Assembly: GCA_964605735.1 (NCBI GenBank) | Contig: CAZSDS010000001.1 | Span: forward strand, 703,157 to 767,156 | Reading direction: 5' to 3' | Length of the DNA: 64,000 nucleotides | Source: an uncultured Candidatus Saccharibacteria bacterium | Lineage (GTDB): Bacteria > Patescibacteriota > Doudnabacteria > UBA920 > O2-02-FULL-48-8 | Part shown: positions 12,623-60,143 of the stretch, in pieces | Layout of the letters: each line of letters starts with the position of its first letter | Numbering within the stretch: position 1 is the stretch's first letter | The notes under the pieces: model-generated | Told to the model about the DNA's origin: nothing | Databases searched by the model: none | Seen by the model: only the letters and a program-made list of their open reading frames with translations | Translations under genes and position numbers: made by a program

Positions 12623-15600
12623 TTACTGTCGCAAGAACTTGAAGGTGTCTTCAAAATTTTTGAAGATGACATCCAAAATTGACTCTGTCTGGCGCGGCAC
12701 TACAATTGTTCTGACTGGGAACGAGGTGGTGTTGCCGGACTGGTCAGTGGATTCGATCTGAATGCGGTAGATGCCGCCTGGTTTAAGCGTGGTCAGGATG
12801 ACTGTGTGTTCCGTGACTGTGTTGTTGGTAATTTCCACTTTATTGGTCAGCGGCCTGTCAGCAGCGCCTGTTCCTTCTTCGTAACGGACAATTGAAGTGG
12901 CTGGTTCATTCGTCTTCCACGCGACAATTGTCTGGGTGCGGTCCTGTCTGCCAGGAACCAGCGCGGTTTCAATCTTCAAACCGCTGATTTCCGGCGCTGA
13001 CTCATCTTGCGTTGTGGTGATGATTGTTGGGGCTCCGCCTTCAATCATGTTGCCATTGGCCGCGTAGCCGTAAACCGTGACTTCATAAGAGGTTGCCGGC
13101 AGCAGGTTCTCAATTACCATTGAGTGGCTGGTTGTGCGGTTTTCGTCAGATTTCTGCAAAACTTCACTTGTGGCCATGTTCTTATACTGCACCACGGTGG
13201 TGGTTGCTGTTGGTGTTGACCAGGAAGCGCGGAAAGAGTTGTTTGTAATTTCCGTGATGCGGCCTTGCACCGGCAGAGGTCTGGTTGTGAAAGTCTGTTC
13301 CCTGCCCTGACCAACTGCTCCTGGTATGCTGAAGCTTTTTGGCAAAATTCTGTACGTGGTGTTTGGTTTGAGGTTAACCAGTTTGATCTCGTGTTGAGTA
13401 ACTTTAGTTGATGTGTTTGAAGCCTCGTTTGGATATTCTGTACTGCCGGCTGGAACCTGGGATTCTTCCGCGTAGTTCAAGACAGAAAAGGCTTTAATGT
13501 TTGTGCGCCACCTTACAGTTGCGCTGTCCGGGGTGATGTCCACCACTTCAGGCCGGTCAATGAATGGTGGAACCAAGCTAGGCAAGGCTGATTCAATAGC
13601 CTCTTCAATAGCCGCCTGGAATTGCTCAGCATCTTCAATATCAATACTGCCTTCAGTGAAGTACTTGGTTTCAAGGTTTGCCGGTGTGTCTGTTTTTGAG
13701 TTTCCGCCTTTGTCCACTGCTTTTACGCGGTAGTAGTAAGTTGTGCCCATTGTCAGGCCGCGCATTTGAATATTATGCTGCTGGGCAAAATCAGCGCTGG
13801 AAGCAGTAAGCCCATAATCTTCTGTCTTGCCGTATTCAACTATACCGATGGTGTCTTCATTGGTGCTGAAGGCGATTTCTGCAGAAAATGAAGTGATGTT
13901 ATTCGCCACGACTCCGGTAATGTTAGGCGCAGTGGTATCTAGGGTAACGGATGACCCTCCTCCCCCGCCTCCAACCTGCTGGATAATGGTTGTTTCGTCA
14001 GTGGTGAACTGTCCGACGTCAGAAATTGTTTCATTTCCTGCCTCATCAGTTGATTTTACTCGGAAGTAGTAAGTGGTGTTTTCTTCAAGTCCGGTAATTG
14101 AAACCACGTGGAAAATGGACAACGTTTCAATCAGGTCAGTTTCGGTATCAAGGTCATCCTCTGCCAAGCCCCAATCCAGTTGTGAAGTGGCAAGCTCATT
14201 GGTTTGCCAGATCACAACAGCAGCCGTGGCAGCAATCACCGGCGTGTCGATTCCGGTAATGACAGGCGCCTGGTTGTCTGTTGTGGTAACAAAGGAGTAG
14301 TAACTGCCGCCATTGGTGTCAGTGGTTGTGTTTTCCTGGTCGTCCGTGGACTGGACTGAGTAATAATATGTGGTGCCCGCGTCCAAGCCAGTCAGGTTCA
14401 CTGAGTGCTGGAAAGGAGCTGAGCCGCCGACCAAAGATGCAGTTCCAACCTGTGTTGGGTTTGCCAGGGTCGGGCTTGTTGAATAGTTTACGAAAGAATC
14501 CGAGTCTGCGTTTGTAGTCCAGAATATTGTTGCCGAATGATCACCAACGCTGGTTTCCGTGACACCGGAAACTACCGGGCCGGATACTGTGGTAAAGTTA
14601 TACCCTGCCCCGTCATTGTCTTTGGTGGTGGCGTTCCCCAGCGGGTCATTGGATTTGACTCGGAATAAGTAAGTGGTGTTTGGAGTCAGGTTGCGCAGAG
14701 TGACTGAGTGCGAGGTGACAAAAGATGAAACCGCCTGGCCTACGTCAAAGGTTGTTGCCGGGGAAATAGAAAAGTCCACGCGAGAATCAGAAAGCTCGTC
14801 AGTGGTCCACGTAATAGTGGCTGTGGTTGACTGGACATCAGCCACGGTGATGTTCGTGATTACCGGGGCAGAGTTATCCGTACCACCTTGTCCGTCAGCG
14901 GTGTCTGAAACAACATCAGAGAATCCGCTGATGTCTCCGTCAGTGTCCACTGTGCGGACTTTGTAGTAATAAGTGGTTTCTTGGTCCAGGGTAAAGTCTG
15001 CGAAGTAGTTGACGTTAATGTCCGTGATGGTGGAATGAAGAGAGAACGAACTACCGTCCGTTGACCGGTAGATTTCATACTGTTCAAACTCAGAACCTGC
15101 TTCCTCAGTGTAAACCTCCCAGGAAATAAATTCGGTGTAATTTTCTGCGCTGACATTGGAGATGTCCTTGATAAACATCTTGTTAGGGTTTGGGGTGTTT
15201 GGCGAAACAGCTGTTACAGAAGTGATGTTTCCGTTTGCGTCCATAACCTGCAGGTAAACCGTGAAGTGATTAGGAATTGGGGCAAAGTTCCAATTTGGGC
15301 TTAGGTCTATAGAGTTCCCGCCCGCGTCCTGCCATTCACCGGAAGTCGCGTTGCGTCCGTCCGCAGACATGTCGGAGTTGTTGGATAACCTGTAGGACAG
15401 CCCCGCGTCATCATCAGCCGTAATTTGAACCTTGCCCTGGCTTACATCCAAATTTAAAGTGACACTAGGCGGAGTCGTGTCTAATGTGAATTCTCCGGAT
15501 GTGGCTTGGGCAGTATTATTGGCTGATTCGTTGTCGTTTATCGTCACGCGAACTTGCGCGGTAGTCACATAGTTGTCCGGTATCTGGCTGAGGGCGTCCC

Positions 15601-17539
15601 AAACCGCAGTGTATGAGGTATAGCCAACCTCCTCCACTTCCTTGTTGTTTGTGTCGCCTGCGGCCAGGGATTGCGAATTGATCGCGACCCATCCCCCGCC
15701 AATATTATATTGGAACGAAGGTGTCACAAAGCCAGGGGTTGTTGTGCCGGTAGTTGTGTCAACGTCACGAATATTATATGTGATCAGAACCTTGCCGACG
15801 TCAGGGCTGTCCGGGTCAGTCTCATGCACTGCTGAAACTGAGTCAGATGGGTCAAAGTTCGGCGGAGCGTTAACAACGTAAGTAACCGTAATACTGCTGA
15901 ATGTTGGCGTTGCAACGCCGTTGCCGCCAAGAATGACCTTGTATTGGAACCACCGGTCATTGCTGCCCGATCTGAGCGGGTTAGATGAGGCAATGGTTAC
16001 GTTGTTGTTTGCTGAAACAAAATAGTTGCTTCCGTCGCACGAACTGCCGGTGTCGGAAAACCCGCACCAGCCGCTCCAGGTTGCGCCATCCGGAGATGTG
16101 CGGATTTGAACGCGGGCGGTTTCTGTGACAGAAGTGCCTGATGCAGTCCAGGCAACCTTTGCCACCAGGGTTTCAGTGTCCCCTGCGTCAAATGGTGATG
16201 AAATCACTTCTGCTCCTGAGTACATCCCACTATATGTGAGCGATGAGCTTGTGATTGGTCTAGGAGTGTCGCTGCCCCCCGTAACAAACGACGCCATGGC
16301 GTTAGCGGTGTTACGAGAATCATTTGTAGTCCAAGTAGCTGTTTCATTCGTTAATGCCGAAGATGATGTCCTATACTGTACCATGTGTTGTCCGTTATCA
16401 CTGCTTACTTCGGTATAACTGGCATTTGGCCCTGAGACTGATGTGGAGCCGACTTGTGTAGCAACACACAACACGAAAACATTAGCAACTGTATTGAGTC
16501 CTGAAGAACAAGGATGGATTGTAGCGGAAATGTTAGAGGTGCTGCCTGTGGTGTCGAGTGGGTCATAATGATCAGCACCAGCAAGTTCAAAAGCATAAAT
16601 TCTGAAGGTTGAACCTACGGTCGCAGCCTGTACTGTGACAGTAGTTGTTCCGCCTGTGACATTTTTTGCGTAATAGATGTGTTCTTGTCGGAAGTTAGTA
16701 CCAGTGAATGAAATTGCAGTAGAGTAAGTGTTACCAGCGTTGTCTGAAGCGGAATAAGCGATTCCAGAACTATCTACCTGCGACATCGCAACAACAATCA
16801 AGTTGCCGGGAGTTACATTCGGAAGTACCGCTTGTGCACTGATTCCTGAGTTAGATCCGCTTGTTTGTTGGACAACCGTTGGCGGGGCAATTGGATAAGG
16901 CACTGCCCTCCACTGCAAGTTTGTACCAGGCGAGGCGAAGGTATGCAGTTGCCCTGGTCTTACCCTCTCCCAAGTTGATCCCCCATTGTTTGATAATTCA
17001 TAATATAAGCTTCCAGTGCCAGCCCCCTCTGTTGCTGTTAGGGTGGCTGAATTTACGGAAGTGCCTGCCGCATTTGCCTGAGTAGATTGGGCAGGGTCTG
17101 TAGTAACCAAATTCGAGTAAGTTCCAAGTTGGATGTTGGATCCTATTAGTGCTCCTGTTTGCGTTGAGTATTTATTCCAATTGGTCTGGTCTGCCGGGTG
17201 GGCCGCTGTTGAGGCACTAACTCCCCCGCTCCAGCTGTTTTGGGTAAAGGTATAGGATGCGGCTGAGCTAGGCGTGCCACCGTACAAAAGAACCCACGCA
17301 AAAATAGCCAACAATAATGTTGTTGCTGACAGTGTTCTCCAGCGCGGTTCGCTGACTTTGAGAAAACCCAGCACTTTCCTTGGAATGACAAAAACAACCC
17401 AAGACAGTTTTCTAAAAAAACTGTCGGATTTTACCTTTTTGTTATTTGTGGTTTTTCTGGGCATGTCAGTCACGTTTGCACTATTTGTGAATGCTGATTT
17501 CTCCGACTGATTTCCCGAACCAATAGGATTTTCATCCAT
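12623..17539 (-). CDS. giant (1638 aa) cell-surface protein with N-terminal signal anchor and multiple Fn3-like repeats
   Basis: An N-terminal TM (LLLAIFAWVLLYGG), Thr/Ser-rich beta-rich repeats with ATITWTT.ELSDSRVDFS-type Fn3 / PAP-N-like units, and a GGGGGGSS linker. Confidence 0.7.
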   Translation of the reverse strand: MDENPIGSGNQSEKSAFTNSANVTDMPRKTTNNKKVKSDSFFRKLSWVVFVIPRKVLGFLKVSEPRWRTLSATTLLLAIFAWVLLYGGTPSSAASYTFTQNSWSGGVSASTAAHPADQTNWNKYSTQTGALIGSNIQLGTYSNLVTTDPAQSTQANAAGTSVNSATLTATEGAGTGSLYYELSNNGGSTWERVRPGQLHTFASPGTNLQWRAVPYPIAPPTVVQQTSGSNSGISAQAVLPNVTPGNLIVVAMSQVDSSGIAYSASDNAGNTYSTAISFTGTNFRQEHIYYAKNVTGGTTTVTVQAATVGSTFRIYAFELAGADHYDPLDTTGSTSNISATIHPCSSGLNTVANVFVLCVATQVGSTSVSGPNASYTEVSSDNGQHMVQYRTSSSALTNETATWTTNDSRNTANAMASFVTGGSDTPRPITSSSLTYSGMYSGAEVISSPFDAGDTETLVAKVAWTASGTSVTETARVQIRTSPDGATWSGWCGFSDTGSSCDGSNYFVSANNNVTIASSNPLRSGSNDRWFQYKVILGGNGVATPTFSSITVTYVVNAPPNFDPSDSVSAVHETDPDSPDVGKVLITYNIRDVDTTTGTTTPGFVTPSFQYNIGGGWVAINSQSLAAGDTNNKEVEEVGYTSYTAVWDALSQIPDNYVTTAQVRVTINDNESANNTAQATSGEFTLDTTPPSVTLNLDVSQGKVQITADDDAGLSYRLSNNSDMSADGRNATSGEWQDAGGNSIDLSPNWNFAPIPNHFTVYLQVMDANGNITSVTAVSPNTPNPNKMFIKDISNVSAENYTEFISWEVYTEEAGSEFEQYEIYRSTDGSSFSLHSTITDINVNYFADFTLDQETTYYYKVRTVDTDGDISGFSDVVSDTADGQGGTDNSAPVITNITVADVQSTTATITWTTDELSDSRVDFSISPATTFDVGQAVSSFVTSHSVTLRNLTPNTTYLFRVKSNDPLGNATTKDNDGAGYNFTTVSGPVVSGVTETSVGDHSATIFWTTNADSDSFVNYSTSPTLANPTQVGTASLVGGSAPFQHSVNLTGLDAGTTYYYSVQSTDDQENTTTDTNGGSYYSFVTTTDNQAPVITGIDTPVIAATAAVVIWQTNELATSQLDWGLAEDDLDTETDLIETLSIFHVVSITGLEENTTYYFRVKSTDEAGNETISDVGQFTTDETTIIQQVGGGGGGSSVTLDTTAPNITGVVANNITSFSAEIAFSTNEDTIGIVEYGKTEDYGLTASSADFAQQHNIQMRGLTMGTTYYYRVKAVDKGGNSKTDTPANLETKYFTEGSIDIEDAEQFQAAIEEAIESALPSLVPPFIDRPEVVDITPDSATVRWRTNIKAFSVLNYAEESQVPAGSTEYPNEASNTSTKVTQHEIKLVNLKPNTTYRILPKSFSIPGAVGQGREQTFTTRPLPVQGRITEITNNSFRASWSTPTATTTVVQYKNMATSEVLQKSDENRTTSHSMVIENLLPATSYEVTVYGYAANGNMIEGGAPTIITTTQDESAPEISGLKIETALVPGRQDRTQTIVAWKTNEPATSIVRYEEGTGAADRPLTNKVEITNNTVTEHTVILTTLKPGGIYRIQIESTDQSGNTTSFPVRTIVVPRQTESILDVIFKNFEDTFKFLRQ

Positions 17540-17715
17540 TTTGTTTTTGTTTCTGATATCTGCTCATTTTGGCAGACAGAAATATATTAACCAACTCAAT
17601 TATACCACAAGAACTTGAATTTGTCCAGCAAAATATAATGGTTGATACTGGCAATTCCAAGAGGTTTACTTAATCATATTTGTTTAAGGAACAAAAGAAA
17701 CTTGTGTTTATGGTT

Positions 17716-19905
17716 GTTTCACGTGAAACACGTATTTAGTCAGATGTTTCACAAGAATTTAAGTCCAAAGAACAGGGCAAAACCTAAATTGCAAAGCTGT
17801 GTCTAAAAACCCCTTAATAACGAGAGAATCAGCTAGATTTCCAAACTATTTCCCTATAAATAAGCATATCAATAAAACATGAAAAATAGGGTGGAAATAA
17901 ATACCGTGAAACAAGGTTATTGCTCAATGTATTTTATTTACGAAAGATGGGACTTCAGAATCAGGGCCCTTTTTCTCAGTTTCACGCATTCTTATTGGGA
18001 GTTGAGAATTTGCCTTTATTTCAAACAATGTTTCACGTGAAACATTGTTGAAATAGCCTTAAAATGTTTCATTTTTTCAAATAGTGTACATTATTGGCCC
18101 AAGTTTTTTGACATAAAATGGCTTATTTAAGCCAATTCTAAGTAGTTTTCATAACCAGTTTCCTAGGATATTAAGGCTGGGGTAGGTGTCTATATTTCGG
18201 CAAATATTACACTTGTGGAACGTTGATTAACTCCCAATAAAATGGTATTCATGCTCAATATACCCTATTCGTGCAAATCTCTATTAGTATTTAGAGTTCA
18301 ATATTTGAACTGCAAAGTAATCCCATCTTATGAAATATTTCGCCAAATAACACTAGAAAATCCCCTGGTAAATTGCGGTTAAATCCTTATTATTTACGCA
18401 AAATCTAGAATTTTTTTGGCTTATCTAAGCCTGTTTTAAATAGATTTTGATTTTGTTTCTTTAGGAATTCGGGGTCTGAATATGTTTCACATGAAACACA
18501 TAGAATGTTTCACATAAGTATGTGTTTCCGCCTTGCTCTTCCTGAGACTGTAAAAAGTGGCTAAATTAAGGGAAAACATACAGTTCTCGAAACTATTTTC
18601 CTAATATATTGATGCACTATATTCCTGTGAAACATACCGCTGTTTCTCAGTGAAACTACTTAGTAATCACTAAATATTAGAGAAATTGCTGTTAAAAGAA
18701 GGATTTGGCCTTGCTGAATAGTTAAAAGATAGTGATCTAACGAGCCAATAACCAATAACGCTAATATTATTGCTATTTTTTGAGTGTTCCACGTGAAACG
18801 TATCCTGGTGCCTACATATAATAGCGTTATCAAACCAAGTAGTCCTGTTGTAGCGGCGATTAGTAGAAAGATATTGTGAGGGGGTTGGTATTGCCATGGT
18901 TCCACGTGAAACGCATGTTCCGCTGTTCTAATGTACTGACCTAGCCCTACACCAAAAATTGGCCTTTCTTTGAATAAAGTGAGTGCCATATCATTAAAAT
19001 CAGCTCGATATTCAATAGCGGGATCATTATCCACTGTTTCCAATGATCTGGGGATAACTAAGTCACTGTAAAACCCTATCAAAATTAGGGTAGAAATCAC
19101 CCCCAATAAGGTCACTAAAAACGCGGTTTTAAAGCGCTTTTTTGCCAAATTTTTTGCAAGGAAATACAGGAGGATGATAGTTGCTGTAAGCCATGCGCTC
19201 CTTGAGAAACTCACAAGTAATCCCCAGGCTAGAATTCCAGCTGTTATAGCGCATAATATAGCCTTGAGTTTGGTTTCACGTGAAACGTTAAGGAGAAAGA
19301 CTAAACAAACAGCCAAAAACCCACCAAGTACATTAGGGTGCGGGAATGTGCCATAAGCTCTTAAAACCTTGGTTCCAGCAATATCCAAAGTAGCGGCCCC
19401 AGAGTCAGTCATTCGAGGCAGATGGTAGCCAATTGTGCTGAATTCCCGGATTTGTTCCACGTGAAACTGTGCTACAGCCAAAATTGACTGAAAAACCCCG
19501 TGAACAAGTAATATGCCAATGATTGGTCTGTGTGTTTGCGGGTTAGATCGTACGTAAATGAAAATGAAAGCATATTCAGCCAGTTTTAATGTTGCATACA
19601 GCCAGGAGTTAAAGTGTTCCACGTGAAACAGTCCAATCAGGCTTATTGCCAAGAGTAAAAGAATTAGTGGCTTTATTTGAAGTCTTTTTTGAGTAAAAAA
19701 ACAGGTGAGTGCCAGGGTTACCACAGCCAAATCACTAGCATAAATAAAGAAAGCTTTGTGGTAAGAAAAGTAATAGTCTATAAAGGCGTCATCAAAATTT
19801 AGGATCGTCCTTAATTGAAAAGGCGCCAAGATAAAGAACAGATAAAGAAGTAGATCTGTTATAGGTATGCTTTGGATTTTCGTAAATAATTGTTTCACGT
19901 GAAAC
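17716..19905. repeat. dispersed palindromic motif GTTYCACGTGAAAC, at least 8 exact copies plus variants
   Basis: Exact copies at 17716, 18030 (inside the 26-bp perfect palindrome 18024-18049), 18786, 18899, 19273, 19454, 19616 and 19892. Variants at 18484 (CACATG core) and 18640 (GTTTCtcagTGAAAC). See F2 for context. Confidence 0.8.
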
Positions 19906-19955
19906 ATTGACTTATTGTAAAAAATATTGTCTGATGATGAAAATTCAAAAATCAT
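18660..19955 (-). CDS. O-antigen ligase / Wzy_C-family polytopic membrane protein
   Basis: Ten or more TM helices; Wzy_C-like motifs RAYGTFPHPNVLGGFLAV and SFSRSAWL. Five in-frame palindrome copies encode FHVE/K. Confidence 0.65.
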   Translation of the reverse strand: MIFEFSSSDNIFYNKSMFHVKQLFTKIQSIPITDLLLYLFFILAPFQLRTILNFDDAFIDYYFSYHKAFFIYASDLAVVTLALTCFFTQKRLQIKPLILLLLAISLIGLFHVEHFNSWLYATLKLAEYAFIFIYVRSNPQTHRPIIGILLVHGVFQSILAVAQFHVEQIREFSTIGYHLPRMTDSGAATLDIAGTKVLRAYGTFPHPNVLGGFLAVCLVFLLNVSRETKLKAILCAITAGILAWGLLVSFSRSAWLTATIILLYFLAKNLAKKRFKTAFLVTLLGVISTLILIGFYSDLVIPRSLETVDNDPAIEYRADFNDMALTLFKERPIFGVGLGQYIRTAEHAFHVEPWQYQPPHNIFLLIAATTGLLGLITLLYVGTRIRFTWNTQKIAIILALLVIGSLDHYLLTIQQGQILLLTAISLIFSDY

Positions 19956-20050
19956 TTTTACTTTGCCGTGTGCTTATTATAATGCTTCGCATAAAAAAAC
20001 CGCTAATGCGGTTTCGTTTTTGAAATTAGAGACGGATTGTAGTGGACTTG

Positions 20051-42890: not shown

Positions 42891-43322
42891 ATGAAATCAA
42901 AAATCAACAAAATATTCTTTACTGCACTTGTTTTTCTGCTCTTTGCGCAACCAGTTTTTGCGCAAGGTTTTGTTTTTTGCGGAAAACGAAGTCAGGATGA
43001 TCCTAATACCCCAGTTGTGGAAGGGGCGTGTACGCTCAATGACCTTTGGACCTTGATTTTCTACGGTGCCAACTTTTTGATTGGAATGTCAGGTTTGGTT
43101 GCTTTGTTCTTTGTTGTCTGGGGTGGAGTAAGAATGATGCTTTCCTTTGGGAACCCGGAAGCAGTTAAGGAGGGGAAGTCCACTATTACCAATGCCTTAC
43201 TCGGTTTGGTGCTGGTGTTGCTTTCCTATTTGATAGTTGGATATGTTGCTGAATTGCTCTTGCCGGGCGGGGGAGTAGGCAACCCGCTTCAAAACCTTAT
43301 CCGATACGTAAGACCGAATTAG
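42891..43322 (+). CDS. TrbC/VirB2-like pilin family protein (paralog 1)
   Basis: Signal peptide, then two hydrophobic helices flanking a short polar loop (LIGMSGLVALFFVVWGGVRMMLSFGNPEAVKEGKSTITNALLGLVLVLLSYLIVG). Confidence 0.6.
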   Translation: MKSKINKIFFTALVFLLFAQPVFAQGFVFCGKRSQDDPNTPVVEGACTLNDLWTLIFYGANFLIGMSGLVALFFVVWGGVRMMLSFGNPEAVKEGKSTITNALLGLVLVLLSYLIVGYVAELLLPGGGVGNPLQNLIRYVRPN

Positions 43323-43325
43323 ACT

Positions 43326-43982
43326 ATGAAGAAGCTCTTAATAGCATTAATAATAATTTTGGCCATTGTCCCGTTCTTCGCTTTTGCGCAAGAAGCGTGT
43401 TCGCCGGGTTACACCGGCACTTCGCTCTGCAACGCGATCCCAAGATTCGGCGGCTTAAACATAAACGATTTACAGGGATTTATTATTGGGATATTTTCCT
43501 GGATTGCCGGAATCATTGGCACAATCCTTATGGCCGTTCTTATATACAGCGGGATAAAGATGGTGCTCTCACAGGGTGATCTAGGCAAAGTCAAAGAAGC
43601 CAAAGCGTCATTTACTTATGCCATCCTGGGTTTTTTGGTAACTATCTTTGGATACGTGATTGTTTCCTCGGTTCAGTATTTCATTGGCGTCAGGCAGGGT
43701 GATCCTGAGCAGGAAAGAAATTTCTTCTTTAACCCTTTGCGGGACAGCACATTGATCGGATTTCTTGAAACAACAATGACAAACGTTTTAGGAGTTGTCG
43801 GTGCCGTCGTTTTGTTTTATCTTGTGTGGAATGGATTCAAATATATATTGGCTGGATCAAATGAAGAGCAGACAAAAGCTGCCAAGTTGGCGATTACATG
43901 GTCCATCATTGGTTTGATCAGTATTTTAGCATCTTACACAATAGTAAAGGTTCTTATTGATACATTTGGAAAATATACATGA
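43326..43982 (+). CDS. TrbC/VirB2-like pilin protein with duplicated pilin module (paralog 2)
   Basis: Signal peptide plus two consecutive helix-loop-helix pilin modules (..LIYSGIKMVLSQGDLGKVKEAK.. and ..LVWNGFKYILAGSNEEQTKAAK..). Confidence 0.6.
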   Translation: MKKLLIALIIILAIVPFFAFAQEACSPGYTGTSLCNAIPRFGGLNINDLQGFIIGIFSWIAGIIGTILMAVLIYSGIKMVLSQGDLGKVKEAKASFTYAILGFLVTIFGYVIVSSVQYFIGVRQGDPEQERNFFFNPLRDSTLIGFLETTMTNVLGVVGAVVLFYLVWNGFKYILAGSNEEQTKAAKLAITWSIIGLISILASYTIVKVLIDTFGKYT

Positions 43983-44320
43983 AGAAATATTTTCTACCGA
44001 TTTTCATAATACTCTCAAGTTTGGTGGCTGCACCGGCGCAGGCCGTGCTACGGGGGAATGCTCCCGGGGGTCTCTTTGTTAGTTTCACCAGCAATGATCC
44101 TTATAATGTGATCATGGCGGTAATTTCTTTGATACTTGGGTTTGCTGGGTCAGTTGCCATGTTGTTTTTAATCATTGGTGGATTTTATTATGTAACTGCT
44201 GGCATGAACGAGGATTTGGCAAAGCGCGGCAAATTGTATGTTAAAAATTCCATAATCGGCTTGATAATTATCGTATTATCGTATACCATTATATCTGTAA
44301 TATATAGGGAACTTGCGTAG
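43979..44320 (+). CDS. TrbC/VirB2-like pilin family protein (paralog 3)
   Basis: Start overlaps the previous stop. LFLIIGGFYYVTAGMNEDLAKRGK motif. Confidence 0.6.
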   Translation: MKKYFLPIFIILSSLVAAPAQAVLRGNAPGGLFVSFTSNDPYNVIMAVISLILGFAGSVAMLFLIIGGFYYVTAGMNEDLAKRGKLYVKNSIIGLIIIVLSYTIISVIYRELA

Positions 44321-44374
44321 ACTTTTATAAATCCTATGAAAGGTCGAAATAAATATAAAAAGAAAGGAATAAAA

Positions 44375-44755
44375 ATGAAGAAAATAACAAAAATTGCTAA
44401 CATCTTAATGATCTGTTTGAGTTTGGTTTTGGTTGTGGCCCCATTTGTGGCTGGTGCTCAGTTCAACCTGCCTAACGCAGGCGGCACTGGTTTGACCGGC
44501 GGCATCACAAACGAAACCACTCTGACAGGTTTTATCTTGCGCGTTATCAACATCGCGTTGGCGTTGGCTGGTTTGATTGCTGTTTTGTTCCTGATCATCG
44601 GTGGTTTTAGATACATCACTGCTGGCGGAAACGAAGAAGCATCAGGTAGTGCCAAAAAAATTATTTTGAACGCGGTCATTGGTATTATTGTCATCATTCT
44701 GTCATTCGTAGTTGTCCGTGTTGTGGCCAATACTTTGACCTCCACTAACATCTAA
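44375..44755 (+). CDS. TrbC/VirB2-like pilin family protein (paralog 4; start moved to ATG 44375 after AAAGGAA)
   Basis: LFLIIGGFRYITAGGNEEASGSAKK motif and a signal peptide. Confidence 0.6.
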   Translation: MKKITKIANILMICLSLVLVVAPFVAGAQFNLPNAGGTGLTGGITNETTLTGFILRVINIALALAGLIAVLFLIIGGFRYITAGGNEEASGSAKKIILNAVIGIIVIILSFVVVRVVANTLTSTNI

Positions 44756-44759
44756 CAGT

Positions 44760-45143
44760 ATGAAGAAAAAGTTAAGCATATTGTTGGTAGTGGCGTTTGT
44801 CATTGTGGGGGTTTCCGCATTTTTTACCGCAGATGCTCAAGGGTTGACCGCGCCAAGTAATCCCGGTGGATTGTTGGATTTCTCTAGAGTCAAAGGCGGA
44901 TCAGGCGGTGTAGCAGGACTTATCATTGCAATTACAAACTTGGTTCTTGGGGTTGCCGGAGCAATTGCCATACTCTTTGTGATCATTGGTGGTTTCCAGT
45001 ACATTCTCAGCGGAGCCAATGAAGATTTGGCCAAGCGAGGCAAGGCTACACTAACGAATGCCATCATCGGTTTGATAATTATTGTATTGTCATTTACAGT
45101 AATTAGCGTTGTATATACTACACTTACAAATGTACAACCATAA
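44760..45143 (+). CDS. TrbC/VirB2-like pilin family protein (paralog 5)
   Basis: LFVIIGGFQYILSGANEDLAKRGK motif and a signal peptide. Confidence 0.6.
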   Translation: MKKKLSILLVVAFVIVGVSAFFTADAQGLTAPSNPGGLLDFSRVKGGSGGVAGLIIAITNLVLGVAGAIAILFVIIGGFQYILSGANEDLAKRGKATLTNAIIGLIIIVLSFTVISVVYTTLTNVQP

Positions 45144-45152
45144 ATAAAAAAG

Positions 45153-45184
45153 ATAAGCCGACTCCCGTTAGGGGTCGGCTTTTG
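45153..45184. terminator. bidirectional intrinsic terminator
   Basis: AAGCCGAC-tcccgttaggg-GTCGGCTT with T/A runs on both sides. Separates the pilin array from the convergent GC-rich gene. Confidence 0.65.
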
Positions 45185-45229
45185 ATTTGTCTCAGACGAG
45201 ACGCTTAGAGACAGTGTGCAGAATCTTGG

Positions 45230-46435
45230 TCAGTTTTGCGTCGTAGGAACGCAGTTACCGCTCGATTCGTTGAAGGTGCCGCGGAGCGTTCTGCTGCGCT
45301 TGGTGCTGTCCGCGGTGTAGAACCTTGATTCGTTCACCGGAATCTTGGGTGTCTCATCGTCGCCACGGTTGGCGACTTGATACACGGCCATGGATTTCGG
45401 CTTGACTCGTTCCGTAAAGCAGGCATCCTGCCCTTCCAGGGGAGTCACGAACGTAATCAAAGCGGGTGCATCTGAGTCAGCGGGAATTTTGCCGTCCCAG
45501 ATGTTGTTGACGTTGTTTGCCGTGTCCACGAAATTGCCGTTCATGTACACTCGAACCCTGCCCATGAACCGGTCAGGCCCTTGCGTGCGGAACGCGGCGA
45601 TGTAGTTCTCACCCATGAAATTGCGGATCTTGCGCGCCTGGTTGACTGAATAGAACCCATATGGGTTGTAACCATACTGGTATCCGTATGCCGCGCCGTA
45701 GTTCAGTCCGTAGCCATATTCAGCCGGGATAGTTTCCAGCGGCGTGCCGGGTTCAAGTCCGAGCGCCATGTTCCGAAAGTGCGTCATGTTAGTCATGTGC
45801 GCACGCGCCAGGGTCTGCGGCGATTCAAGTGCCGGATTTTTGTAGCGGATCGGCTGAACCAAACCCTGGTCCATTGCATCCAGAACAAAGTCGTTGACCA
45901 AGTCCTGGGGCATGACTTGCCGAGGTGCCGTTGGCGGTACACCGTACAAAGGCGGTGTGTAGGCAGGCGGCGTGGCCGGCGTGGCCGGCGTGGTTGGAGC
46001 AATGCTCTCTGCCCGACGCGTCACTTGCGGCGCGCTTGGTGCAGGGGAAATTGCGCCAGAGCGGTGGTGAAGTACCAGGGTGTTGCCCTGGAATTCGTGC
46101 GTGACGTTGTGCGGGCGCAGTGCCCTGAGCAACTTGTCCAGCACATTGCCGAGCGGTTCTTTGACAAATCCGCCCTTGAGCCTGGTTTCGTCCAAGACCC
46201 GTTCTTCTGTTCCGGCGCCCAGCACGTAACTGAATCCAGGTGCTTGCTGGGTGAGGCCGTCGAGGATTTCCCGCAGGCTCCTGTCCTGTCCGGCCGGCGG
46301 CGCATTCAGGCTCACAATCGAGTTGTACACGTTCCCGATGATCCTGGCCGGCTGCTGCGCCCCGGCGAACGCCGGTACGCTGAGCAAAACCAACAGGATC
46401 AGAAAAACGTTGTGCGCGGTTCTGATGCTCTTCAC
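45230..46435 (-). CDS. secreted Pro/Thr- and Tyr/Gly-rich hypothetical protein (start moved to GTG at 46435)
   Basis: GTG start 6 nt after AAGGAGG. The signal peptide KSIRTAHNVFLILLVLLSVPAFAGA is followed by APTTPATPATPPAYTPP and YGYGLNYGAAYGYQYGYNPYGFY low-complexity tracts. GC-rich by eye. Confidence 0.55.
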   Translation of the reverse strand: MKSIRTAHNVFLILLVLLSVPAFAGAQQPARIIGNVYNSIVSLNAPPAGQDRSLREILDGLTQQAPGFSYVLGAGTEERVLDETRLKGGFVKEPLGNVLDKLLRALRPHNVTHEFQGNTLVLHHRSGAISPAPSAPQVTRRAESIAPTTPATPATPPAYTPPLYGVPPTAPRQVMPQDLVNDFVLDAMDQGLVQPIRYKNPALESPQTLARAHMTNMTHFRNMALGLEPGTPLETIPAEYGYGLNYGAAYGYQYGYNPYGFYSVNQARKIRNFMGENYIAAFRTQGPDRFMGRVRVYMNGNFVDTANNVNNIWDGKIPADSDAPALITFVTPLEGQDACFTERVKPKSMAVYQVANRGDDETPKIPVNESRFYTADSTKRSRTLRGTFNESSGNCVPTTQN

Positions 46436-46644
46436 TGTCTTCCTCCTTGGAAGTGAAAATTGCTGATTGGACAATATCTGAAGTGGTGTAAATCGCGAAT
46501 TTATCGAGCAAGTCAAAATATGATTTTGACTTGCAATTATAGCAAAAAAAGAGCATTTTGTCAATGCTCTAGAAAGAACATCTAAAGACCTTTGCGCAGG
46601 CGATATTAACTACTCCAAAAGATTTTGAGAATGAATTAGACAAT

Positions 46645-46672
46645 AAAAAAGAAGGGCCTAAAGATCAGGCCC
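46645..46672 (-). terminator. intrinsic terminator for the minus-strand operon
   Basis: On the minus strand: GGGGCC-tgatcttta-GGCCC followed by TTCTTTTTTATT. Confidence 0.6.
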
Positions 46673-46699
46673 CTCGATGTTCAAGTCCGCAAGTTGCGG

Positions 46700-48556
46700 T
46701 TACTTGAACCGGTAGTAAAATCCTCCTTCCAGCGGAAACCCGTTCACGGCGATTTTAACCGTTGTGGTTGCCGACTGGATTGTAATTTCGTCCCCAGTCA
46801 TGGGATACGCGACACCGTCCACCAGGACGATGATTTGCATCAGGTTCCCACCCTCAACGAGTGGGCCGTGCTGTTGATATCCACGCAGGCCCATTGGTTG
46901 GCTGCACCTAACGTCAGAACCGATGACACGAGCCGCGTAGCCCGAGATCACCAGGGTCTGTCGTGTTGCTGGGATCACGCCGGTGTCGTGCCAGCGCACT
47001 TGTTCGGTTAAGGTCCCCAGATCCACGTAAGTGAGCGGAGACTTTGACGGCTGCGCCGACGCAAACACGTGTTCGGAGCGAGGTTTGTATTCCCGTTCCG
47101 TGCTGCCCATCCGCGAAGCTGCCCCCAGCTTCCTTTGGTACATGTCCAGTGAGTCGAACATATTGTACACACCAGCCACATACAGCATGATCGCAAGAAC
47201 CATGAGCGATCCGGCGGTAGCTGCCCTTTTTCTGTCGCGTGCCACCATTGCATAGACCCAAACGATGGCAATGAAAGTCAGGAGCAGGATGAGCGGGTAC
47301 TTTGGCATGTCAGACATGTTCATGATCTGGTTCCAGAAAGGCTGTCCAAAGATCAGCACTGCCAGAATCAGAGCCACTCCCATAATCTGTTCCACCAAAC
47401 CAAGCTTGTCGCCAGACGTTGCAGCCGAAGACGAGGTACTGGATTTGGTTGTTATAGTGGTTGCCGCTGAACCTGCTGTTGGATCACCCGCACCCGGCAC
47501 TGTTGGTCCAGTTGCGGCGGCGATTACAGGTGCTGGGCCCGCGATGTTTCTCCAAAACCAGATGACCGTGCCAATGAAGGCGAGGCCAAAAAGCATGAGG
47601 ATGATCCATCCAAGCGCCCAGACGAATCTGTTTTTCCAGGTCATTTCCTGCCATCCGGCCGGAACAAAGTTCCAGCTTTCTGACGAGGCAGAAGAGCTTG
47701 GATTAACAGTTCTAGCCCCCAGAATGCGGTCGCGTTTCTGAATCAGAAGGTCGAGTGCCTTCCTTTCTGATTCGGTTAATCCGCGCTGCATGTTTTTGTT
47801 TTGCAGTACAGCGATTTCGCCATACGTTTTGTTCAATTCAGTTTCAGCCTGATTTCTCAGGTTATCTTCGTGTTGGTTCGCGATTTCCCGATTCTTGTTC
47901 ACGAAGACAGCTTCTGACTGAATTTTCTGAACGTGGGCGAGATGGGGAAGCAGGCTTCCCAGAATCGCGAACAGCAGAATACCGCTGATCGCGTATCCGC
48001 TGAGCCTCATCCACTCGTTCCGGTTCAGTGTGATGATACCCCACGTAAACAGGGCCAGAATGATCATCCCAGAGAAGTACGGGCTTGGCCACTGAGGCAT
48101 TGCCGCCAGGATGAAGATGAACACCATCATGGAGGCGATGACCGCGAGAGCTGACCTGACCAGGAATTTCAGGAATACCAGGTCCTCGAAAGTGCCGGTG
48201 CCTGTGTATTCGATCATTCCCTTAGGGTGGGTAGGGAGGTGAAAGTGAATTTTGCCCCTGAGTTTGTTCAGGACAAGATCGACTCCCACTGCAAGAGCGG
48301 CGGCGTTGATGCTCCGTTCGCTCATCAAAAGCATGAGGATGATCGGCGGGTAAACAATCCCCAGCCACGGCATGATGCTGTGGCCGAAAGATCCCAGTGA
48401 ACCGATTGTCACGGTTGCGATCAGCCAGAGCAGTGAAACAAGAAGGAGGCTGAAGTACGATGCCATCAGCGCCCTCATTGCCGTTGCCGCCCAGCCGCCG
48501 ACTGTTCGGACGGCTTCATCCAGAAGCCGGAAGAAGTCCATGATCAAAGCACCCAT
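46700..48556 (-). CDS. large polytopic membrane protein with internal coiled-coil and Thr/Ser-rich linker (function unknown; VirB6/TrbL-like topology is a guess)
   Basis: 618 aa with 10 or more predicted TM segments, an ~100-aa coiled-coil insert and a C-terminal soluble domain. GC-rich by eye. Confidence 0.55.
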   Translation of the reverse strand: MGALIMDFFRLLDEAVRTVGGWAATAMRALMASYFSLLLVSLLWLIATVTIGSLGSFGHSIMPWLGIVYPPIILMLLMSERSINAAALAVGVDLVLNKLRGKIHFHLPTHPKGMIEYTGTGTFEDLVFLKFLVRSALAVIASMMVFIFILAAMPQWPSPYFSGMIILALFTWGIITLNRNEWMRLSGYAISGILLFAILGSLLPHLAHVQKIQSEAVFVNKNREIANQHEDNLRNQAETELNKTYGEIAVLQNKNMQRGLTESERKALDLLIQKRDRILGARTVNPSSSASSESWNFVPAGWQEMTWKNRFVWALGWIILMLFGLAFIGTVIWFWRNIAGPAPVIAAATGPTVPGAGDPTAGSAATTITTKSSTSSSAATSGDKLGLVEQIMGVALILAVLIFGQPFWNQIMNMSDMPKYPLILLLTFIAIVWVYAMVARDRKRAATAGSLMVLAIMLYVAGVYNMFDSLDMYQRKLGAASRMGSTEREYKPRSEHVFASAQPSKSPLTYVDLGTLTEQVRWHDTGVIPATRQTLVISGYAARVIGSDVRCSQPMGLRGYQQHGPLVEGGNLMQIIVLVDGVAYPMTGDEITIQSATTTVKIAVNGFPLEGGFYYRFK

Positions 48557-48579
48557 TGCTATCTCCTTGGTCTCAAAAA

Positions 48580-49242
48580 TTAGCGGTTGAGGAGAGCTGA
48601 CTTCAGCCGGCTCCAGAAGGTTACATGTCTGGCAGGATCCCAGTCGAAGCCAGTGTTTCTGCTTCGCCGCAGATCATCGGCAAGCTCGCGGAGAGTTGGA
48701 CTTCCTGTCTCTTCTGCCCAGCTTGTGATCAGGGCCTGGTTTTTTTCCATCCATACGGCAAAGCTTTTGCCCTTGCCGCTGGAGAAGAATCCAGTGATCT
48801 GACGATCGACCCGCTTCTTGTCCAGGTCCATGAACTTCACGTAGTTCTTCCAGTCGTCATCAGTCATGTTACTGAGTTTCGCCAGGACCTGAGCCGTCTT
48901 TTTCGGGTCGCCGCCCTTGCGGTCTCCTTCGACCTTGTATTGCGCCACCAGGATACGGAACCGGTTCTGCTGGTGGTCGTTCAGCTTACTGACCCTCTTC
49001 AGCAACGTGTGAAGATTTTCAATGCTGACGTTTTCGTCGCTGATGGCAGCGTTGAACAGCTGTTCATCAGCTACGTCGTTGGGCAGAAAGTCGTTGAAGA
49101 TGCTTTTGACCTTGTCCTTTACTTCAGGTCGGTTTACCAGCATCTTGAACATGCTTGCCAAGCCGCTTGTGAAGCTTTCTTCGGCGATAGCTTCACCGCC
49201 TCGCTTGGTCAAACCCCAAATCGTCTTCCAAAAGCTAGCCAT
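48580..49242 (-). CDS. hypothetical cytoplasmic protein (start at ATG 49242 after AAAGGAG)
   Basis: 221-aa ORF; SD 7 nt upstream. It lies 23 bp upstream of the 618-aa membrane protein. Confidence 0.5.
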   Translation of the reverse strand: MASFWKTIWGLTKRGGEAIAEESFTSGLASMFKMLVNRPEVKDKVKSIFNDFLPNDVADEQLFNAAISDENVSIENLHTLLKRVSKLNDHQQNRFRILVAQYKVEGDRKGGDPKKTAQVLAKLSNMTDDDWKNYVKFMDLDKKRVDRQITGFFSSGKGKSFAVWMEKNQALITSWAEETGSPTLRELADDLRRSRNTGFDWDPARHVTFWSRLKSALLNR

Positions 49243-49456
49243 TCGCACGCTCCTTTTTATCTTTGATTTTTCCCAAATTGTGAAACTGCAATCCGTTCGC
49301 CTAGAAAATTCCAGTCTGAAACAGTAAATAATAGCAGAAATTGACGATTTTGTCAAGAATACACAGTAAATAGCACAAATATCCGGTTAATTTAGGTTTA
49401 TGCTGGCGTTTTCATTAAATGTGGGCTTTGGTATAATTACGAGGCTTTAAGAAAAG

Positions 49457-49543
49457 GCCGGGGTGGTGAAATTGGCAGACACGCAAGGTTTAGGACCTTG
49501 TACCCGAAAGGGTGTGGAGGTTCAAGTCCTCTCCCCGGCACCA
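49457..49543 (+). tRNA. tRNA-Leu (UAG), type II
   Basis: Hand-folded: acceptor GCCGGGG/CCCCGGC, anticodon loop TTTAGGA, variable arm, T-arm GGAGGTTCAAGTCCTCT, CCA encoded. Confidence 0.8.
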
Positions 49544-49682
49544 AGAGCATAATAATATGTTATATTGCGGGGACTTGAACGGGCAGAAGTGAGGCAAGTT
49601 CGTAAGGAACGCAGCCAAACGATCGACAAACGTCCAGTGGACGTTTGGCGCTGCCCTGTAAAGAGCGCCAGCAGGCGACTGA

Positions 49683-49708
49683 AAGTCCTCTCCCCGGCAC
49701 CAAGAAGG
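49683..49708 (+). repeat. 23-bp direct repeat of the 3' end of tRNA-Leu(UAG) (att-like scar)
   Basis: AAGTCCTCTCCCCGGCACCAAGA at 49521-49546 is repeated at 49683-49708. The 137 bp between them contains a perfect 9-bp-stem hairpin, CAAACGTCC-agt-GGACGTTTG. Confidence 0.75.
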
Positions 49709-56338: not shown

Positions 56339-56869
56339 TCACATTCTGCCGGACAGCCAGTCAATGAGCCGCTGGCGTTTGAAGTAGGCAGCTGCCAGGA
56401 TACACACGGCGGTTGTTGGCCAGATCCATTCGTCACTTGCTGATGCATCCTGGGCATAGTGCATGAGAATTAGGGTGATGACCACCAGGTACAGCAAGGG
56501 AAGGACTATGTTGCTGAAGCGTTTGAGTCTAGGAAAGGAATCCTCGTGCTTGAGCCATTTCATCAAGAGTGCGGCTAAGCCCAGTGCAATTCCAGTTGGT
56601 ACGGCAGACCAGAACCCGGTTGGGCCCAAGCTTAAGCCAAATCCTGCGCCAGCCGTCATGATTGCGTCGCTTGCAGGGTCAATGAATTTTTTTCCTGTGG
56701 CGCTTTCTGCTTTCAGTTTCCTGGCAACCGTTCCGTCAATCATATCCGTGAATACTGCCAGTGCCAGAAACGCAAACGCGAGCGGGCCGTTGCCTGTCCA
56801 CCTAAAATAAACAGCCAACGCCGTTAAAGGTATCCGGGATAAAGACAGCAGGTCAGGTACCCTTTGCAT
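56339..56869 (-). CDS. CDP-alcohol phosphatidyltransferase (PgsA-like)
   Basis: The DGTVARKLKAESATGKKFIDPASDAIM motif (D-G-x2-A-R...G-x3-D-x3-D). Confidence 0.75.
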   Translation of the reverse strand: MQRVPDLLSLSRIPLTALAVYFRWTGNGPLAFAFLALAVFTDMIDGTVARKLKAESATGKKFIDPASDAIMTAGAGFGLSLGPTGFWSAVPTGIALGLAALLMKWLKHEDSFPRLKRFSNIVLPLLYLVVITLILMHYAQDASASDEWIWPTTAVCILAAAYFKRQRLIDWLSGRM

Positions 56870-58879: not shown

Positions 58880-59812
58880 ATGCTTGAATTTATTTCCGAA
58901 TCACCAGAAAGAATAGATAAATTTTTAGCGGTCAAGAGCAATGTCTCTCGTGGCCGTGTTCAGGCTGCCATAAAATCCGGTGTTGTGAAAGTGAATGGCG
59001 AGCCAGTTAATGAGCCTGACTACAAGGTTTCAGAGGGGGATGCTGTAACACTCCCAGAATTTGAAGACGAATCTCTCAAGCCAATGGAATATGACCTGAA
59101 AGTGGTGTTTGAAAATGAAGACATAATTGTGATCGATAAGCCGCATAATCTGGTGGTGCATCCGGGAGCCGGCCACAAGCAGGATACGTTAAGCAATGCC
59201 CTCCTTGCCAAGTACCCGGAAATTGCAAATGTGGGGGATGTGGCCAGGCCGGGAATAGTGCACAGGCTGGACGAGGATACTTCCGGTTTGATCGTCGCCG
59301 CCAAGACCCAGTCGGGCTATGGCTACATGAAAAATCTGTTCATGACCAGGCAGATTGAAAAAGAATATATCACATTAGTTCATGGTATTCCGGAAAAAAT
59401 GCACGACATCATCAACGCCCCGATAGAACGAGCCTCCACCCATGTGAAAATGAAGGTTGGGTCCGGAAAAGAGGCTGTTACCGGGTACCGCATCCTGGCA
59501 ACAAATGAGCAAAATGGCGAAAATTCAGGAGTTGACAAAATGGCCCTTCTTAGGGTAAAATTGCATACGGGTCGCACCCATCAGATAAGGGTTCACATGG
59601 CGCACATAGGCCATCCAGTGGTGGGTGATCAGTTGTACGGCGGCAATTTCAAGAAAGCAGACACACAGCTGATTAACCGACAATTCCTGCACGCCGCACA
59701 ATTAAAGTTCAAACTTCCGGATGGCACACTGCTTGATTTGCAAGCACCTTTGCCGAAAGATCTGCAGGAAGTATTAAAGAAAGTAAACATTGACTATGAT
59801 GCACGCATTTAA
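58880..59812 (+). CDS. RluA-family pseudouridine synthase (RluD-like)
   Basis: N-terminal S4 domain (RIDKFLA) and the catalytic HRLDEDTSGLIVAAK motif. Confidence 0.85.
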   Translation: MLEFISESPERIDKFLAVKSNVSRGRVQAAIKSGVVKVNGEPVNEPDYKVSEGDAVTLPEFEDESLKPMEYDLKVVFENEDIIVIDKPHNLVVHPGAGHKQDTLSNALLAKYPEIANVGDVARPGIVHRLDEDTSGLIVAAKTQSGYGYMKNLFMTRQIEKEYITLVHGIPEKMHDIINAPIERASTHVKMKVGSGKEAVTGYRILATNEQNGENSGVDKMALLRVKLHTGRTHQIRVHMAHIGHPVVGDQLYGGNFKKADTQLINRQFLHAAQLKFKLPDGTLLDLQAPLPKDLQEVLKKVNIDYDARI

Positions 59813-60143
59813 ACAAGAACAGCTCAGGACCGATGTCCCTGTGCTCAAAGCCGGATATATCGTTCGAGTCCACCAGAGAATTACAGACGTTTCCCCGGAT
59901 GGAAAAGAAAAACAGCGTATCCAGATTTTTGAGGGACAGGTAATCGGAACCAAGGGCGGCAAGGGAATTAACGGCACTGTGACTGTCCGCAAGGTTACAT
60001 CTGGTGTTGGCGTAGAACGTATCTTCCCAGTACATGCTCCATCTATTGAGAAGATTGAAGTTGTGAAGTCTGCTCCGGCAAGAAAAGCCAAACTGTACTA
60101 CACAAGAGACGGAAAAGAAGCCAAAACAAGAGACGCAAAATAA
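59790..60143 (+). CDS. rplS: 50S ribosomal protein L19
   Basis: The bL19 core (KAGYIVRVHQRITDVSPDGKEKQRIQIFEGQVIG); follows trmD as is typical. The exact start among M1-M4 is uncertain. Confidence 0.85.
   Translation: MTMMHAFKQEQLRTDVPVLKAGYIVRVHQRITDVSPDGKEKQRIQIFEGQVIGTKGGKGINGTVTVRKVTSGVGVERIFPVHAPSIEKIEVVKSAPARKAKLYYTRDGKEAKTRDAK

Follow-up and report, generated by a model that had tools for sequence, protein, structure and literature searches.

A GC-rich opposite-strand gene block beside a VirB2-like pilin array is a conserved, variable locus of the sampled Doudnabacteria

O-antigen and capsule loci sit at a fixed site between conserved flanks and are replaced there by homologous recombination. 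The locus analysed here, a GC-rich block of three minus-strand genes (A, B and C) in a 64,000-nucleotide stretch of a Doudnabacteria genome (the window, by which we mean that whole stretch), resembles them in its fixed site, divergent alleles, shared atypical composition and host-incongruent distribution, with the exchange of alleles inferred from limited data. O-antigen and capsule loci, however, are AT-richer and carry sugar-pathway enzymes, whereas the block is GC-richer and encodes orphan envelope proteins. The block adjoins a five-gene array of the PF18895 pilin family, which is of the same kind as the VirB2-like arrays of Patescibacteria. For these, the describing paper gives 441 arrays of 2-11 pilins with highly divergent copies, and reports that the arrays are essential for the epibiotic lifestyle in one system tested (PMC12102498). 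Unlike the block, the VirB2-like pilin genes are not themselves GC-rich. A search of the same paper by terms returned neither an adjacent opposite-strand GC-rich block nor the families described below, and the terms ‘Doudnabacteria’ and ‘GC content’ are absent from it (PMC12102498).

The block is the form that this genome has of a locus found in every sampled member of the Doudnabacteria (Patescibacteria, or candidate phyla radiation, CPR), always on the strand opposite to both flanks. Loci were gathered with the neighbouring SBP gene from one genome per species (14 loci) and from metagenomes (22 loci), and the credibly named sources of these SBP-scan loci are all Candidatus Doudnabacteria. 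Every locus that is long enough has SBP, five plus-strand pilin genes, 3-7 kb of GC-raised minus-strand genes and, if it extends to them, tRNA-Leu(UAG) and ftsH, an order and orientation shared by loci L004-L009, the P0005 contig, L010-L022 and L024-L040. All 14 non-redundant loci with both boundaries keep this order and have the site occupied, as does strain L002. The short contig of L003 carries tRNA-Leu(UAG), a gene for 218 amino acids (aa) and one for 585 aa, and the longer contigs carry ftsH, tRNA-Leu(UAG), genes for 189, 584 and 409-420 aa, five T4SS_pilin genes, SBP, and genes for an NTP-transferase, a ComM-like protein, DUF3276 and LexA. On the P0005 contig a trio of 240, 594 and 313 aa adjoins the five pilins, and very large proteins replace ftsH on the other flank. 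The tRNA-Leu(UAG) gene holds the same position in 14 loci and is near-identical in sequence in several aligned species; its significance probably goes no further than its place in a highly conserved flank.

The excess of GC recurs with the locus. Block GC is 0.550 ± 0.040 (0.486-0.598) against 0.459 ± 0.047 (0.403-0.549) in flanks of ~15 kb per genome, and it is the higher of the two in 14/14 loci (Wilcoxon P = 1.2e-4). GC at third codon positions (GC3) is 0.78 in the block of L014 and 0.36 in its flanks, and in the GC-rich genomes L010 and L024 the block excess is only ~4 points. In the window, GC is 0.53 in the block and 0.45 in the rest; 1-kb windows over 45001-49000 have a GC of 0.524-0.546, against a mean of 0.456 for the whole window, and a 300-nucleotide (nt) profile peaks at 0.62 near 45850-46300 and drops to 0.39-0.46 in spacers. 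The high GC is confined to coding sequence. The three block genes have GC3 values of 0.706, 0.637 and 0.676, compared with 0.485 ± 0.059 (maximum 0.586) for 50 other open reading frames (ORFs) of the window, which places them at z = 2.6-3.8, and the tetranucleotide distance from the window average, in 4-kb steps, peaks at 45001-49000 (0.319) and is equalled only by the low-GC region at 17-21 kb. Codon choice in the window block favours NNC over NNT (0.73 versus 0.48), avoids ATA, CTA and TTA and keeps GAA over GAG (0.85), and the block proteins have more Arg, Ala and Pro and less Lys, Glu and Ile, a shift to G/C-rich codons. The original prediction, which judged by eye that 45230-49242 is GC-richer than its flanks, agrees with the computed GC, GC3 and tetranucleotide profiles. 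It took the block for a horizontally acquired islet at a tRNA gene and named two findings that would speak against this; a profile without deviation was not obtained, the deviation being clear, but identical synteny across the clade was found.

By sequence comparison the three block proteins are orphans outside the clade, with homology confined to it. For each of the three, a word-indexed search of 5.8 billion clustered proteins turned up nothing beyond the protein itself or near-identical strains, a HMMER search over 1.84 billion representatives gave four non-self matches for protein B, and tblastn against 50,697 phage records gave no match. Three of the protein B matches, of 584-594 aa, extend over the N-terminal ~285 residues with E 6e-19 to 8e-7 and all lie in syntenic blocks; the fourth is a 147-aa protein (E 3.4e-4). 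Protein A matches the 189-aa protein at the same position in L004 with E 2e-23 and that of L003 with E 2e-12, and has homologues at this position in L024 and L031 as well; protein B matches P0006 with E 8e-16. Protein C is barely detectable in pairwise comparison (E 0.04), and an iterated profile gathers one family from 15 Doudnabacteria loci, always adjacent to the pilins. Families A and B are limited to a sub-clade made up of the window, L003, L004, L024, P0005 and, in part, L010 and L031. Alignment by hhalign of these two families with the non-homologous block genes of other species gave weak results (the B N-terminus with a 533-aa protein of L013 at a probability of 31%, A with the ‘cyt’ group at 7%). 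Sub-threshold matches to PilX (0.003), JetD (0.004) and IcmF (0.03) in searches of Pfam, PHROG, NCBIfam and PADLOC were treated as chance.

We read the block, with somewhat more confidence than doubt, as a pilin-linked variable site for cassettes of envelope genes, at which alleles turn over by homologous recombination and the GC excess is maintained locally. Allele types would be replaced between lineages through the conserved flanks, SBP and the pilins on one side and tRNA-Leu and ftsH on the other. The assembly of strain L002 is 97.3% identical to the window over 6.2 kb, and the ratios of non-synonymous to synonymous divergence (dN/dS) between the two (Table 1) show that genes A, B and C are under purifying selection in their annotated frames. 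Block dS is like that of ftsH, and block and flanks have a recent history in common. Non-synonymous divergence of the block genes is ~10 times that of ftsH, and this tenfold ratio could by itself saturate the block proteins. Between the window and L004, protein identity is 62-86% in the flanks, 36-61% in the pilins and 23-31% in the block; with L024, the closest relative found, it is 83% for FtsH, 72% for SBP, 40-58% for the pilins and 24-30% for the block.

Several observations make lateral replacement of cassette alleles at the conserved site plausible. L010 and L004 have FtsH proteins that are 88% identical, and the L010 block (15019-18196) keeps protein C at 37-41% identity and the C-terminal half of protein B at 64%, the latter encoded by a gene of its own (287 aa). 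Its promoter-proximal genes belong to types that the distant L011 and L014 carry, which makes this block a mosaic. Similarity within the C family is uncorrelated with SBP identity (Spearman -0.14): the pairs L017/L030, L030/L040 and L017/L022 share 72-77% SBP identity and have C proteins without a BLAST match at E <= 10, whereas L004 or L010 compared with L031 or L012 (SBP 57-61%) have C proteins that are 32-38% identical. In the species of L004, whose strains L006 and L008 are otherwise 99.9% identical, 15 of 17 single-nucleotide polymorphisms (SNPs) fall within 1.6 kb (L004 11524-13113) covering the end of gene B and gene C (binomial P = 6e-12). Of these SNPs 14 are synonymous, and the cluster bears the mark of a recombination tract that was imported.

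A strictly vertical locus would need no exchange of alleles: fast and uneven evolution would account for the divergence, and selection on the genes, for instance through mRNA properties or codons optimised for very high expression, would keep the GC high. The ~10-fold dN ratio of block to ftsH predicts saturation at the 23-30% identity seen between species. Each promoter is close to consensus and has an extended -10 element, gene C has a strong Shine-Dalgarno sequence, and the codon preferences of the window block (NNC favoured, ATA, CTA and TTA avoided, GAA kept) would suit this reading too. However, translational selection is unlikely because the housekeeping and ribosomal genes of the window are without the bias (GC3 0.49 for S16 and 0.43 for ORF 59790-60143, L19 by eye), and because in most species the G-ending codons of Lys, Gln and Glu rise together with NNC codons, which is a general GC shift rather than a tRNA-matched one, and amino-acid usage moves to G/C-rich codons as well. 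The distribution of C types at odds with host relatedness, the mosaic block of L010 and the clustered synonymous SNPs in one population also argue against strictly vertical descent, which we consider unlikely. Selection may still contribute something to the GC excess, given the retention of GAA and the avoidance of ATA, CTA and TTA in the window block.

What maintains the excess can be narrowed further. The foreign signal of transferred DNA fades at synonymous sites with divergence, a process known as amelioration; as the excess persists in species that have diverged to 77-83% FtsH identity, a single transfer cannot have caused it. Its presence in all of these species marks it as a long-maintained property of the cassette pool and the locus, not an unameliorated recent transfer. 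Across a whole candidate phylum, a locus of 3-7 kb has kept a GC content 4-18 points higher than that of its genome, although synonymous sites should by now be saturated, and this calls for a locus-specific force. Fast evolution alone is not that force, since the pilins evolve fast yet are not GC-rich. In L011, L014, L015, L021, L031 and L040 most pilin genes (GC 0.32-0.47) are AT-richer than the genome, and in the window they are slightly so; those of L013, L016 and L024 are not. Adjacent fast-evolving gene sets, pilins and block, can thus deviate in opposite compositional directions. Small and very AT-rich genes (GC 0.31-0.36) occur in or beside the locus in L022 (14704-15009), L030 (13028-13327), L013 (17181-17558) and L015 (19767-20144), and by eye they resemble genes for selfish-element proteins of GIY-YIG and four-helix-bundle types. 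Head-on orientation was rejected as the cause of the GC excess, because the loci of relatives contain AT-rich selfish genes in either orientation. Recombination-linked GC bias has been proposed for bacteria (PMC4450053). A bias of this kind would fit the signs of recombination at the locus and seems to us the most plausible cause of the excess.

Known systems, among them secretins and those of FecA/FecR type, use the N0/STN fold to dock onto a membrane-anchored partner, and the secreted protein C appears to carry such a domain. The protein consists of a signal peptide (aa 1-27, its one N-terminal hydrophobic segment), an N0/STN-like domain (aa ~45-125, nt 46061-46303), a Pro/Thr linker, a Tyr/Gly-rich stretch (aa 239-262, nt 45650-45721) and a beta-rich C-terminal domain conserved in the clade (aa ~275-401). 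Protein C itself has no match in Pfam, PHROG, NCBIfam or PADLOC. A whole-protein profile of its family matches the FpvA signalling domain (E 1e-4) and the PilQ N0 domain (E 2e-4), and a profile of the N0 domain alone has PilQ N0 domains as its top four PDB matches (E 0.002-0.05), each aligned across the full domain; Pfam STN (PF07660) is found in 1/10 C-family members (E 1e-4), the window protein alone giving no match. An AlphaFold model built on a two-sequence alignment has an overall predicted local distance difference test score (pLDDT) of 42, with residues ~45-125 at 60-78 and arranged in the order beta-alpha-beta-beta-alpha-beta-beta. Its first 41 Foldseek matches in the PDB are almost all N0, STN, FecR-like or phage-baseplate N0-like domains (probability 0.9-1.0, E of at least 0.02), the N0 neighbours being InvG, PilQ, XcpQ, LspD, MxiD and BfpB and the STN neighbours FpvA and PupA, with a FecR-like protein besides. 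Profile and model together give moderate support to a secretin-N0/STN-like domain in protein C.

With secretins and TonB-dependent transducers (PilQ, InvG, XcpQ, FpvA; PF07660) protein C would share this N-terminal unit, but they have a C-terminal barrel, whereas protein C has neither a secretin barrel nor a TonB-dependent one and its remainder is unrelated. No Secretin family match was found in 10 C-family members, and the C-terminal-domain profile has no significant PDB match; what it did return was set aside as prion-protein noise arising from the Tyr/Gly-rich composition. Because the barrel domain is absent, protein C is not a secretin. The host clade is thought to have no outer membrane. 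PilQ has been reported absent from CPR genomes (PMC6744442). Protein C also contains a Pro-Ala-Thr repeat encoded by a 9-bp tandem repeat, CGGCGTGGC x2.9 at 45968-45993 on the minus strand (Tandem Repeats Finder), which is the GC-rich run quoted earlier by eye and located exactly at 45966-45997. Strain L002 has a 9-bp deletion that leaves one unit fewer, a small change of copy number within a surface protein. A parallel is offered by a Gracilibacterium, for which 9-mer PTD repeats have been reported (PMC6851277).

Proteins A, B and C may act together with the neighbouring pilins as an envelope module. In it the N0-like domain of C would be the docking piece, binding a membrane-anchored partner, either the polytopic protein B or the pilin assembly, and the remainder of C would face outside as an anchor, cap or host-contact factor. 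We also entertain, more tentatively, that the cassettes, with their N0/STN-domain protein in a lineage that has no secretins, form a pool whose own GC of ~0.55, largely independent of host GC (0.40-0.55), would be held by recombination-linked GC bias. In this pool deeply diverged alleles would circulate among species by homologous replacement through the conserved flanks and set the host or partner specificity, or the phage resistance, of the pilus apparatus; this is possible but rather doubtful. A functional link between block and pilins was guessed at in the original prediction, and it gains some support from the block staying beside the pilins where the ftsH flank differs and from the N0/STN-like domain of C; the VirB6/TrbL route by which the link was drawn lacks sequence support (see below).

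The block might instead be an independent envelope or signalling locus that is unrelated to the pilins and merely syntenic with them. Such independence would agree with the convergent orientation of block and array, their separate promoters and the terminator between them, with the variable gene content (CSD fusions and a kinase in some species), and with the lack of any detectable known type IV secretion system (T4SS) component in the block and of a VirB4-type ATPase among the window ORFs scanned with Pfam, ~25 of some 55. Yet the adjacency is kept in every locus, including the P0005 contig with its replaced ftsH flank, a C-family gene adjoins the pilins in all 15 loci that have one, and C carries a domain typical of docking in pilus and secretion machines, all of which makes an unrelated locus improbable in our view.

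Several points weigh against the reading of a pilin-linked, recombining cassette site. On the side of exchange, one recombination tract has been seen and its SNPs are unpolarised, the incongruence comparison uses SBP as its single host proxy, and very uneven evolutionary rates could mimic the incongruence between C and SBP. On the side of composition, the flank values come from short stretches of each genome, the four spacers in and around the window block are AT-rich (GC 0.35-0.47), and the blocks share no common tetranucleotide signature, the correlation of GC-normalised TETRA z-scores being 0.35 between a block and its own host and 0.33 between a block and other blocks. As to gene content, species outside the sub-clade of A and B hold unrelated and mostly orphan genes at the site, for example CSD-fused proteins and a Ser/Thr kinase, and L013 has no recognisable C gene. 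The functional inference rests on position and one small domain, block and pilin array are separate and convergent transcription units, the N0/STN scores are modest (E 1e-4 to 0.05 for sequence, and Foldseek E of at least 0.02 on a model of pLDDT 42), and the N0 domain is missing from some C-family members.

VirB6/TrbL subunits of T4SSs are polytopic, with at least 5 transmembrane segments, and protein B is likewise polytopic and encoded beside VirB2-like pilins, but its domain layout, with a coiled-coil insert and a beta-rich C-terminal domain, is unlike theirs and sequence similarity is undetectable. Hydropathy gives protein B ~9-10 hydrophobic segments, ~5-6 of them N-terminal and 4 more, with a Ser/Thr/Ala/Pro-rich loop (aa 337-382), after a charged helical insert (aa 207-284), then the beta-rich domain (aa ~470-618), in keeping with the polytopic protein with coiled-coil insert that had been described at the outset. 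Its AlphaFold model (4-sequence alignment, mean pLDDT 41.7) shows long helices and is the source of the low-confidence secondary structure. An exact 18-nt direct repeat within gene B (47589-47606 and 48327-48344, spacing 738 nt or 246 codons) encodes IILML in hydrophobic segments at both copies and may be a remnant of internal duplication or conversion. Protein A is soluble, with no hydrophobic segment, and is probably cytoplasmic, as the original prediction had it; a 5-member profile of its family has no Pfam or PDB match, and the B-family profile likewise lacks a significant match.

The original prediction saw in protein B a possible VirB6/TrbL-like channel component. A reading of it as such a subunit, highly diverged and working for the adjacent pilins, is hard to sustain: no sequence support was found in five family members. 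Besides the topology and the neighbouring pilins, the idea could appeal to VirB6 being reported as scarce or undetectable in some Patescibacteria classes, possibly through divergence (PMC12102498). Window protein B and 4 relatives, however, have no TrbL/VirB6 Pfam match at E <= 1, and the 5-member B profile returned nothing against all PDB chains. The PDB chains include solved VirB6-type proteins. The B family is found only in a sub-clade, whereas the pilin array is universal, and none of virB4, virB3 and virB8 appears among the Pfam-scanned window ORFs (~25 of some 55) or the genes called on the source contig; we regard a VirB6/TrbL identity as highly improbable.

The site was also described as a horizontally acquired islet, and tRNA-associated islands do share with the block a compositional contrast, an adjoining tRNA gene and cargo without annotated function. 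Such islands, however, have an integrase and tRNA-derived att repeats and are patchy among relatives, whereas the block has neither, lies on the 5' side of tRNA-Leu(UAG), is present in all 14 loci examined with no empty site, and equals its flanks in synonymous divergence. Its three genes match no integrase or other family in Pfam, PHROG, NCBIfam or PADLOC, no integrase, transposase or phage gene occurs among the relatives’ block proteins scanned, and no tRNA-derived direct repeat bounds it. The sole tRNA-derived repeat is a 23-nt exact copy of the tRNA-Leu 3' end (49524-49546 and 49683-49705), which encloses 136 bp on the side away from the block. This segment is present in the window and L002, folds moderately well (z = -2.5), matches no Rfam family, and is missing from five other species, where the ftsH promoter directly follows the tRNA; it looks like an att-type scar or miniature insertion unrelated to the block. 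For all the real contrast (GC3 z-scores and top tetranucleotide distance), the adjoining tRNA and the orphan proteins, the idea that some donor of higher GC, foreign to the lineage, recently supplied the block beside tRNA-Leu is scarcely credible and is refuted by the clade-wide synteny, with the same site, strand, GC excess and homologous genes in 14/14 relatives, no phage- or plasmid-like gene, and a block dS to L002 equal to that of ftsH.

The block (45230-49245) comprises two transcription units with a near-consensus promoter each, and the pilin array (42891-45143, plus strand) converges on it (Table 1). The three minus-strand genes, the GTG start with a strong Shine-Dalgarno sequence, the lengths of 618 and 221 aa, and the boundaries (a hairpin usable in both directions on one side, the 5' end of tRNA-Leu(UAG), which points at the block, on the other) had all been given correctly. 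The hairpin, which serves gene C as well as the last pilin gene, is followed on the plus strand by a T-rich tail, and its upstream A-run is a T-run on the minus strand; it is unchanged in L002. The GTG start of gene C lies eight bases past AAGGAGGA. Directly after the gene C -10 element, at the predicted transcription start, is a perfect 12+12 palindrome (46508-46534) that reads GCAAGTCAAAAT cat ATTTTGACTTGC. In L002 its 8+8 core GTCAAAAT-N3-ATTTTGAC is retained and the -35 and -10 elements of gene C are identical; the palindrome may be an operator. The two block promoters agree in 24/30 bases (80% over 30 nt), including TTGACAAAAT.

Table 1. Features of the block and its borders, with divergence from strain L002
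Feature	Position	Strand	Basis and remarks	dN/dS	dS
Five VirB2-like pilin genes	42891-43322, 43326-43982, 43979-44320, 44375-44755, 44760-45143	+	all five above the PF18895 T4SS_pilin gathering score
Hairpin terminator, common to last pilin gene and gene C	45155-45181	both	11-bp stem, 7 GC pairs
Gene C, 401-aa Sec-secreted protein	45230-46435	-	GTG start, AAGGAGG Shine-Dalgarno, signal peptide	0.11	0.088
Gene C promoter	46564..46536	-	TTGACA-17-TGnTATAAT, 12/12 (promoter scan)
Intrinsic terminator of A-B unit	46675..46651	-	11-bp stem, then TTTTTTATTG
Gene B, 618-aa polytopic membrane protein	46700-48556	-	ORF and hydropathy	0.15	0.070
Gene A, 221-aa soluble protein, first in A-B unit	48580-49245	-	ORF; no hydrophobic segment	0.07	0.052
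A-B unit promoter	49356..49328	-	TTGACA-17-TGnTATTAT, 11/12 (promoter scan); identical in L002
tRNA-Leu(UAG)	49457-49543	+	ARAGORN and Rfam; own promoter-like site
ftsH (partial)				0.017	0.054

Elsewhere in the window, a free-standing LAGLIDADG endonuclease ORF (3812-4486, minus strand; Pfam E 5e-12, GC 0.34, GC3 0.30) directly adjoins the tRNA-Cys and tRNA-Leu(UAA) genes. A 1638-aa protein with repeated purple-acid-phosphatase-N and fibronectin-III-type domains (12623-17539, minus strand) is probably a large surface protein. The region 17000-20000, the tetranucleotide outlier equal to the block, has a GC of 0.34-0.40 and contains a Wzy_C/O-antigen-ligase-like gene (18660-19955). Besides the block, the only opposite-strand gene in the co-directional 20-64 kb encodes a CDP-alcohol phosphatidyltransferase (56339-56869, minus strand), whose GC3 of 0.576 is among the two highest outside the block.

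For the prediction of genomic islands the locus is a caution: here a strong compositional contrast beside a tRNA gene is ancestral and clade-wide and does not mark a recent transfer. It is also well suited to testing for recombination-linked GC bias in reduced genomes. For the pilus itself, the conserved secreted and membrane proteins encoded next to the array, one of them with a putative docking domain, are concrete candidates for accessory or host-contact factors.

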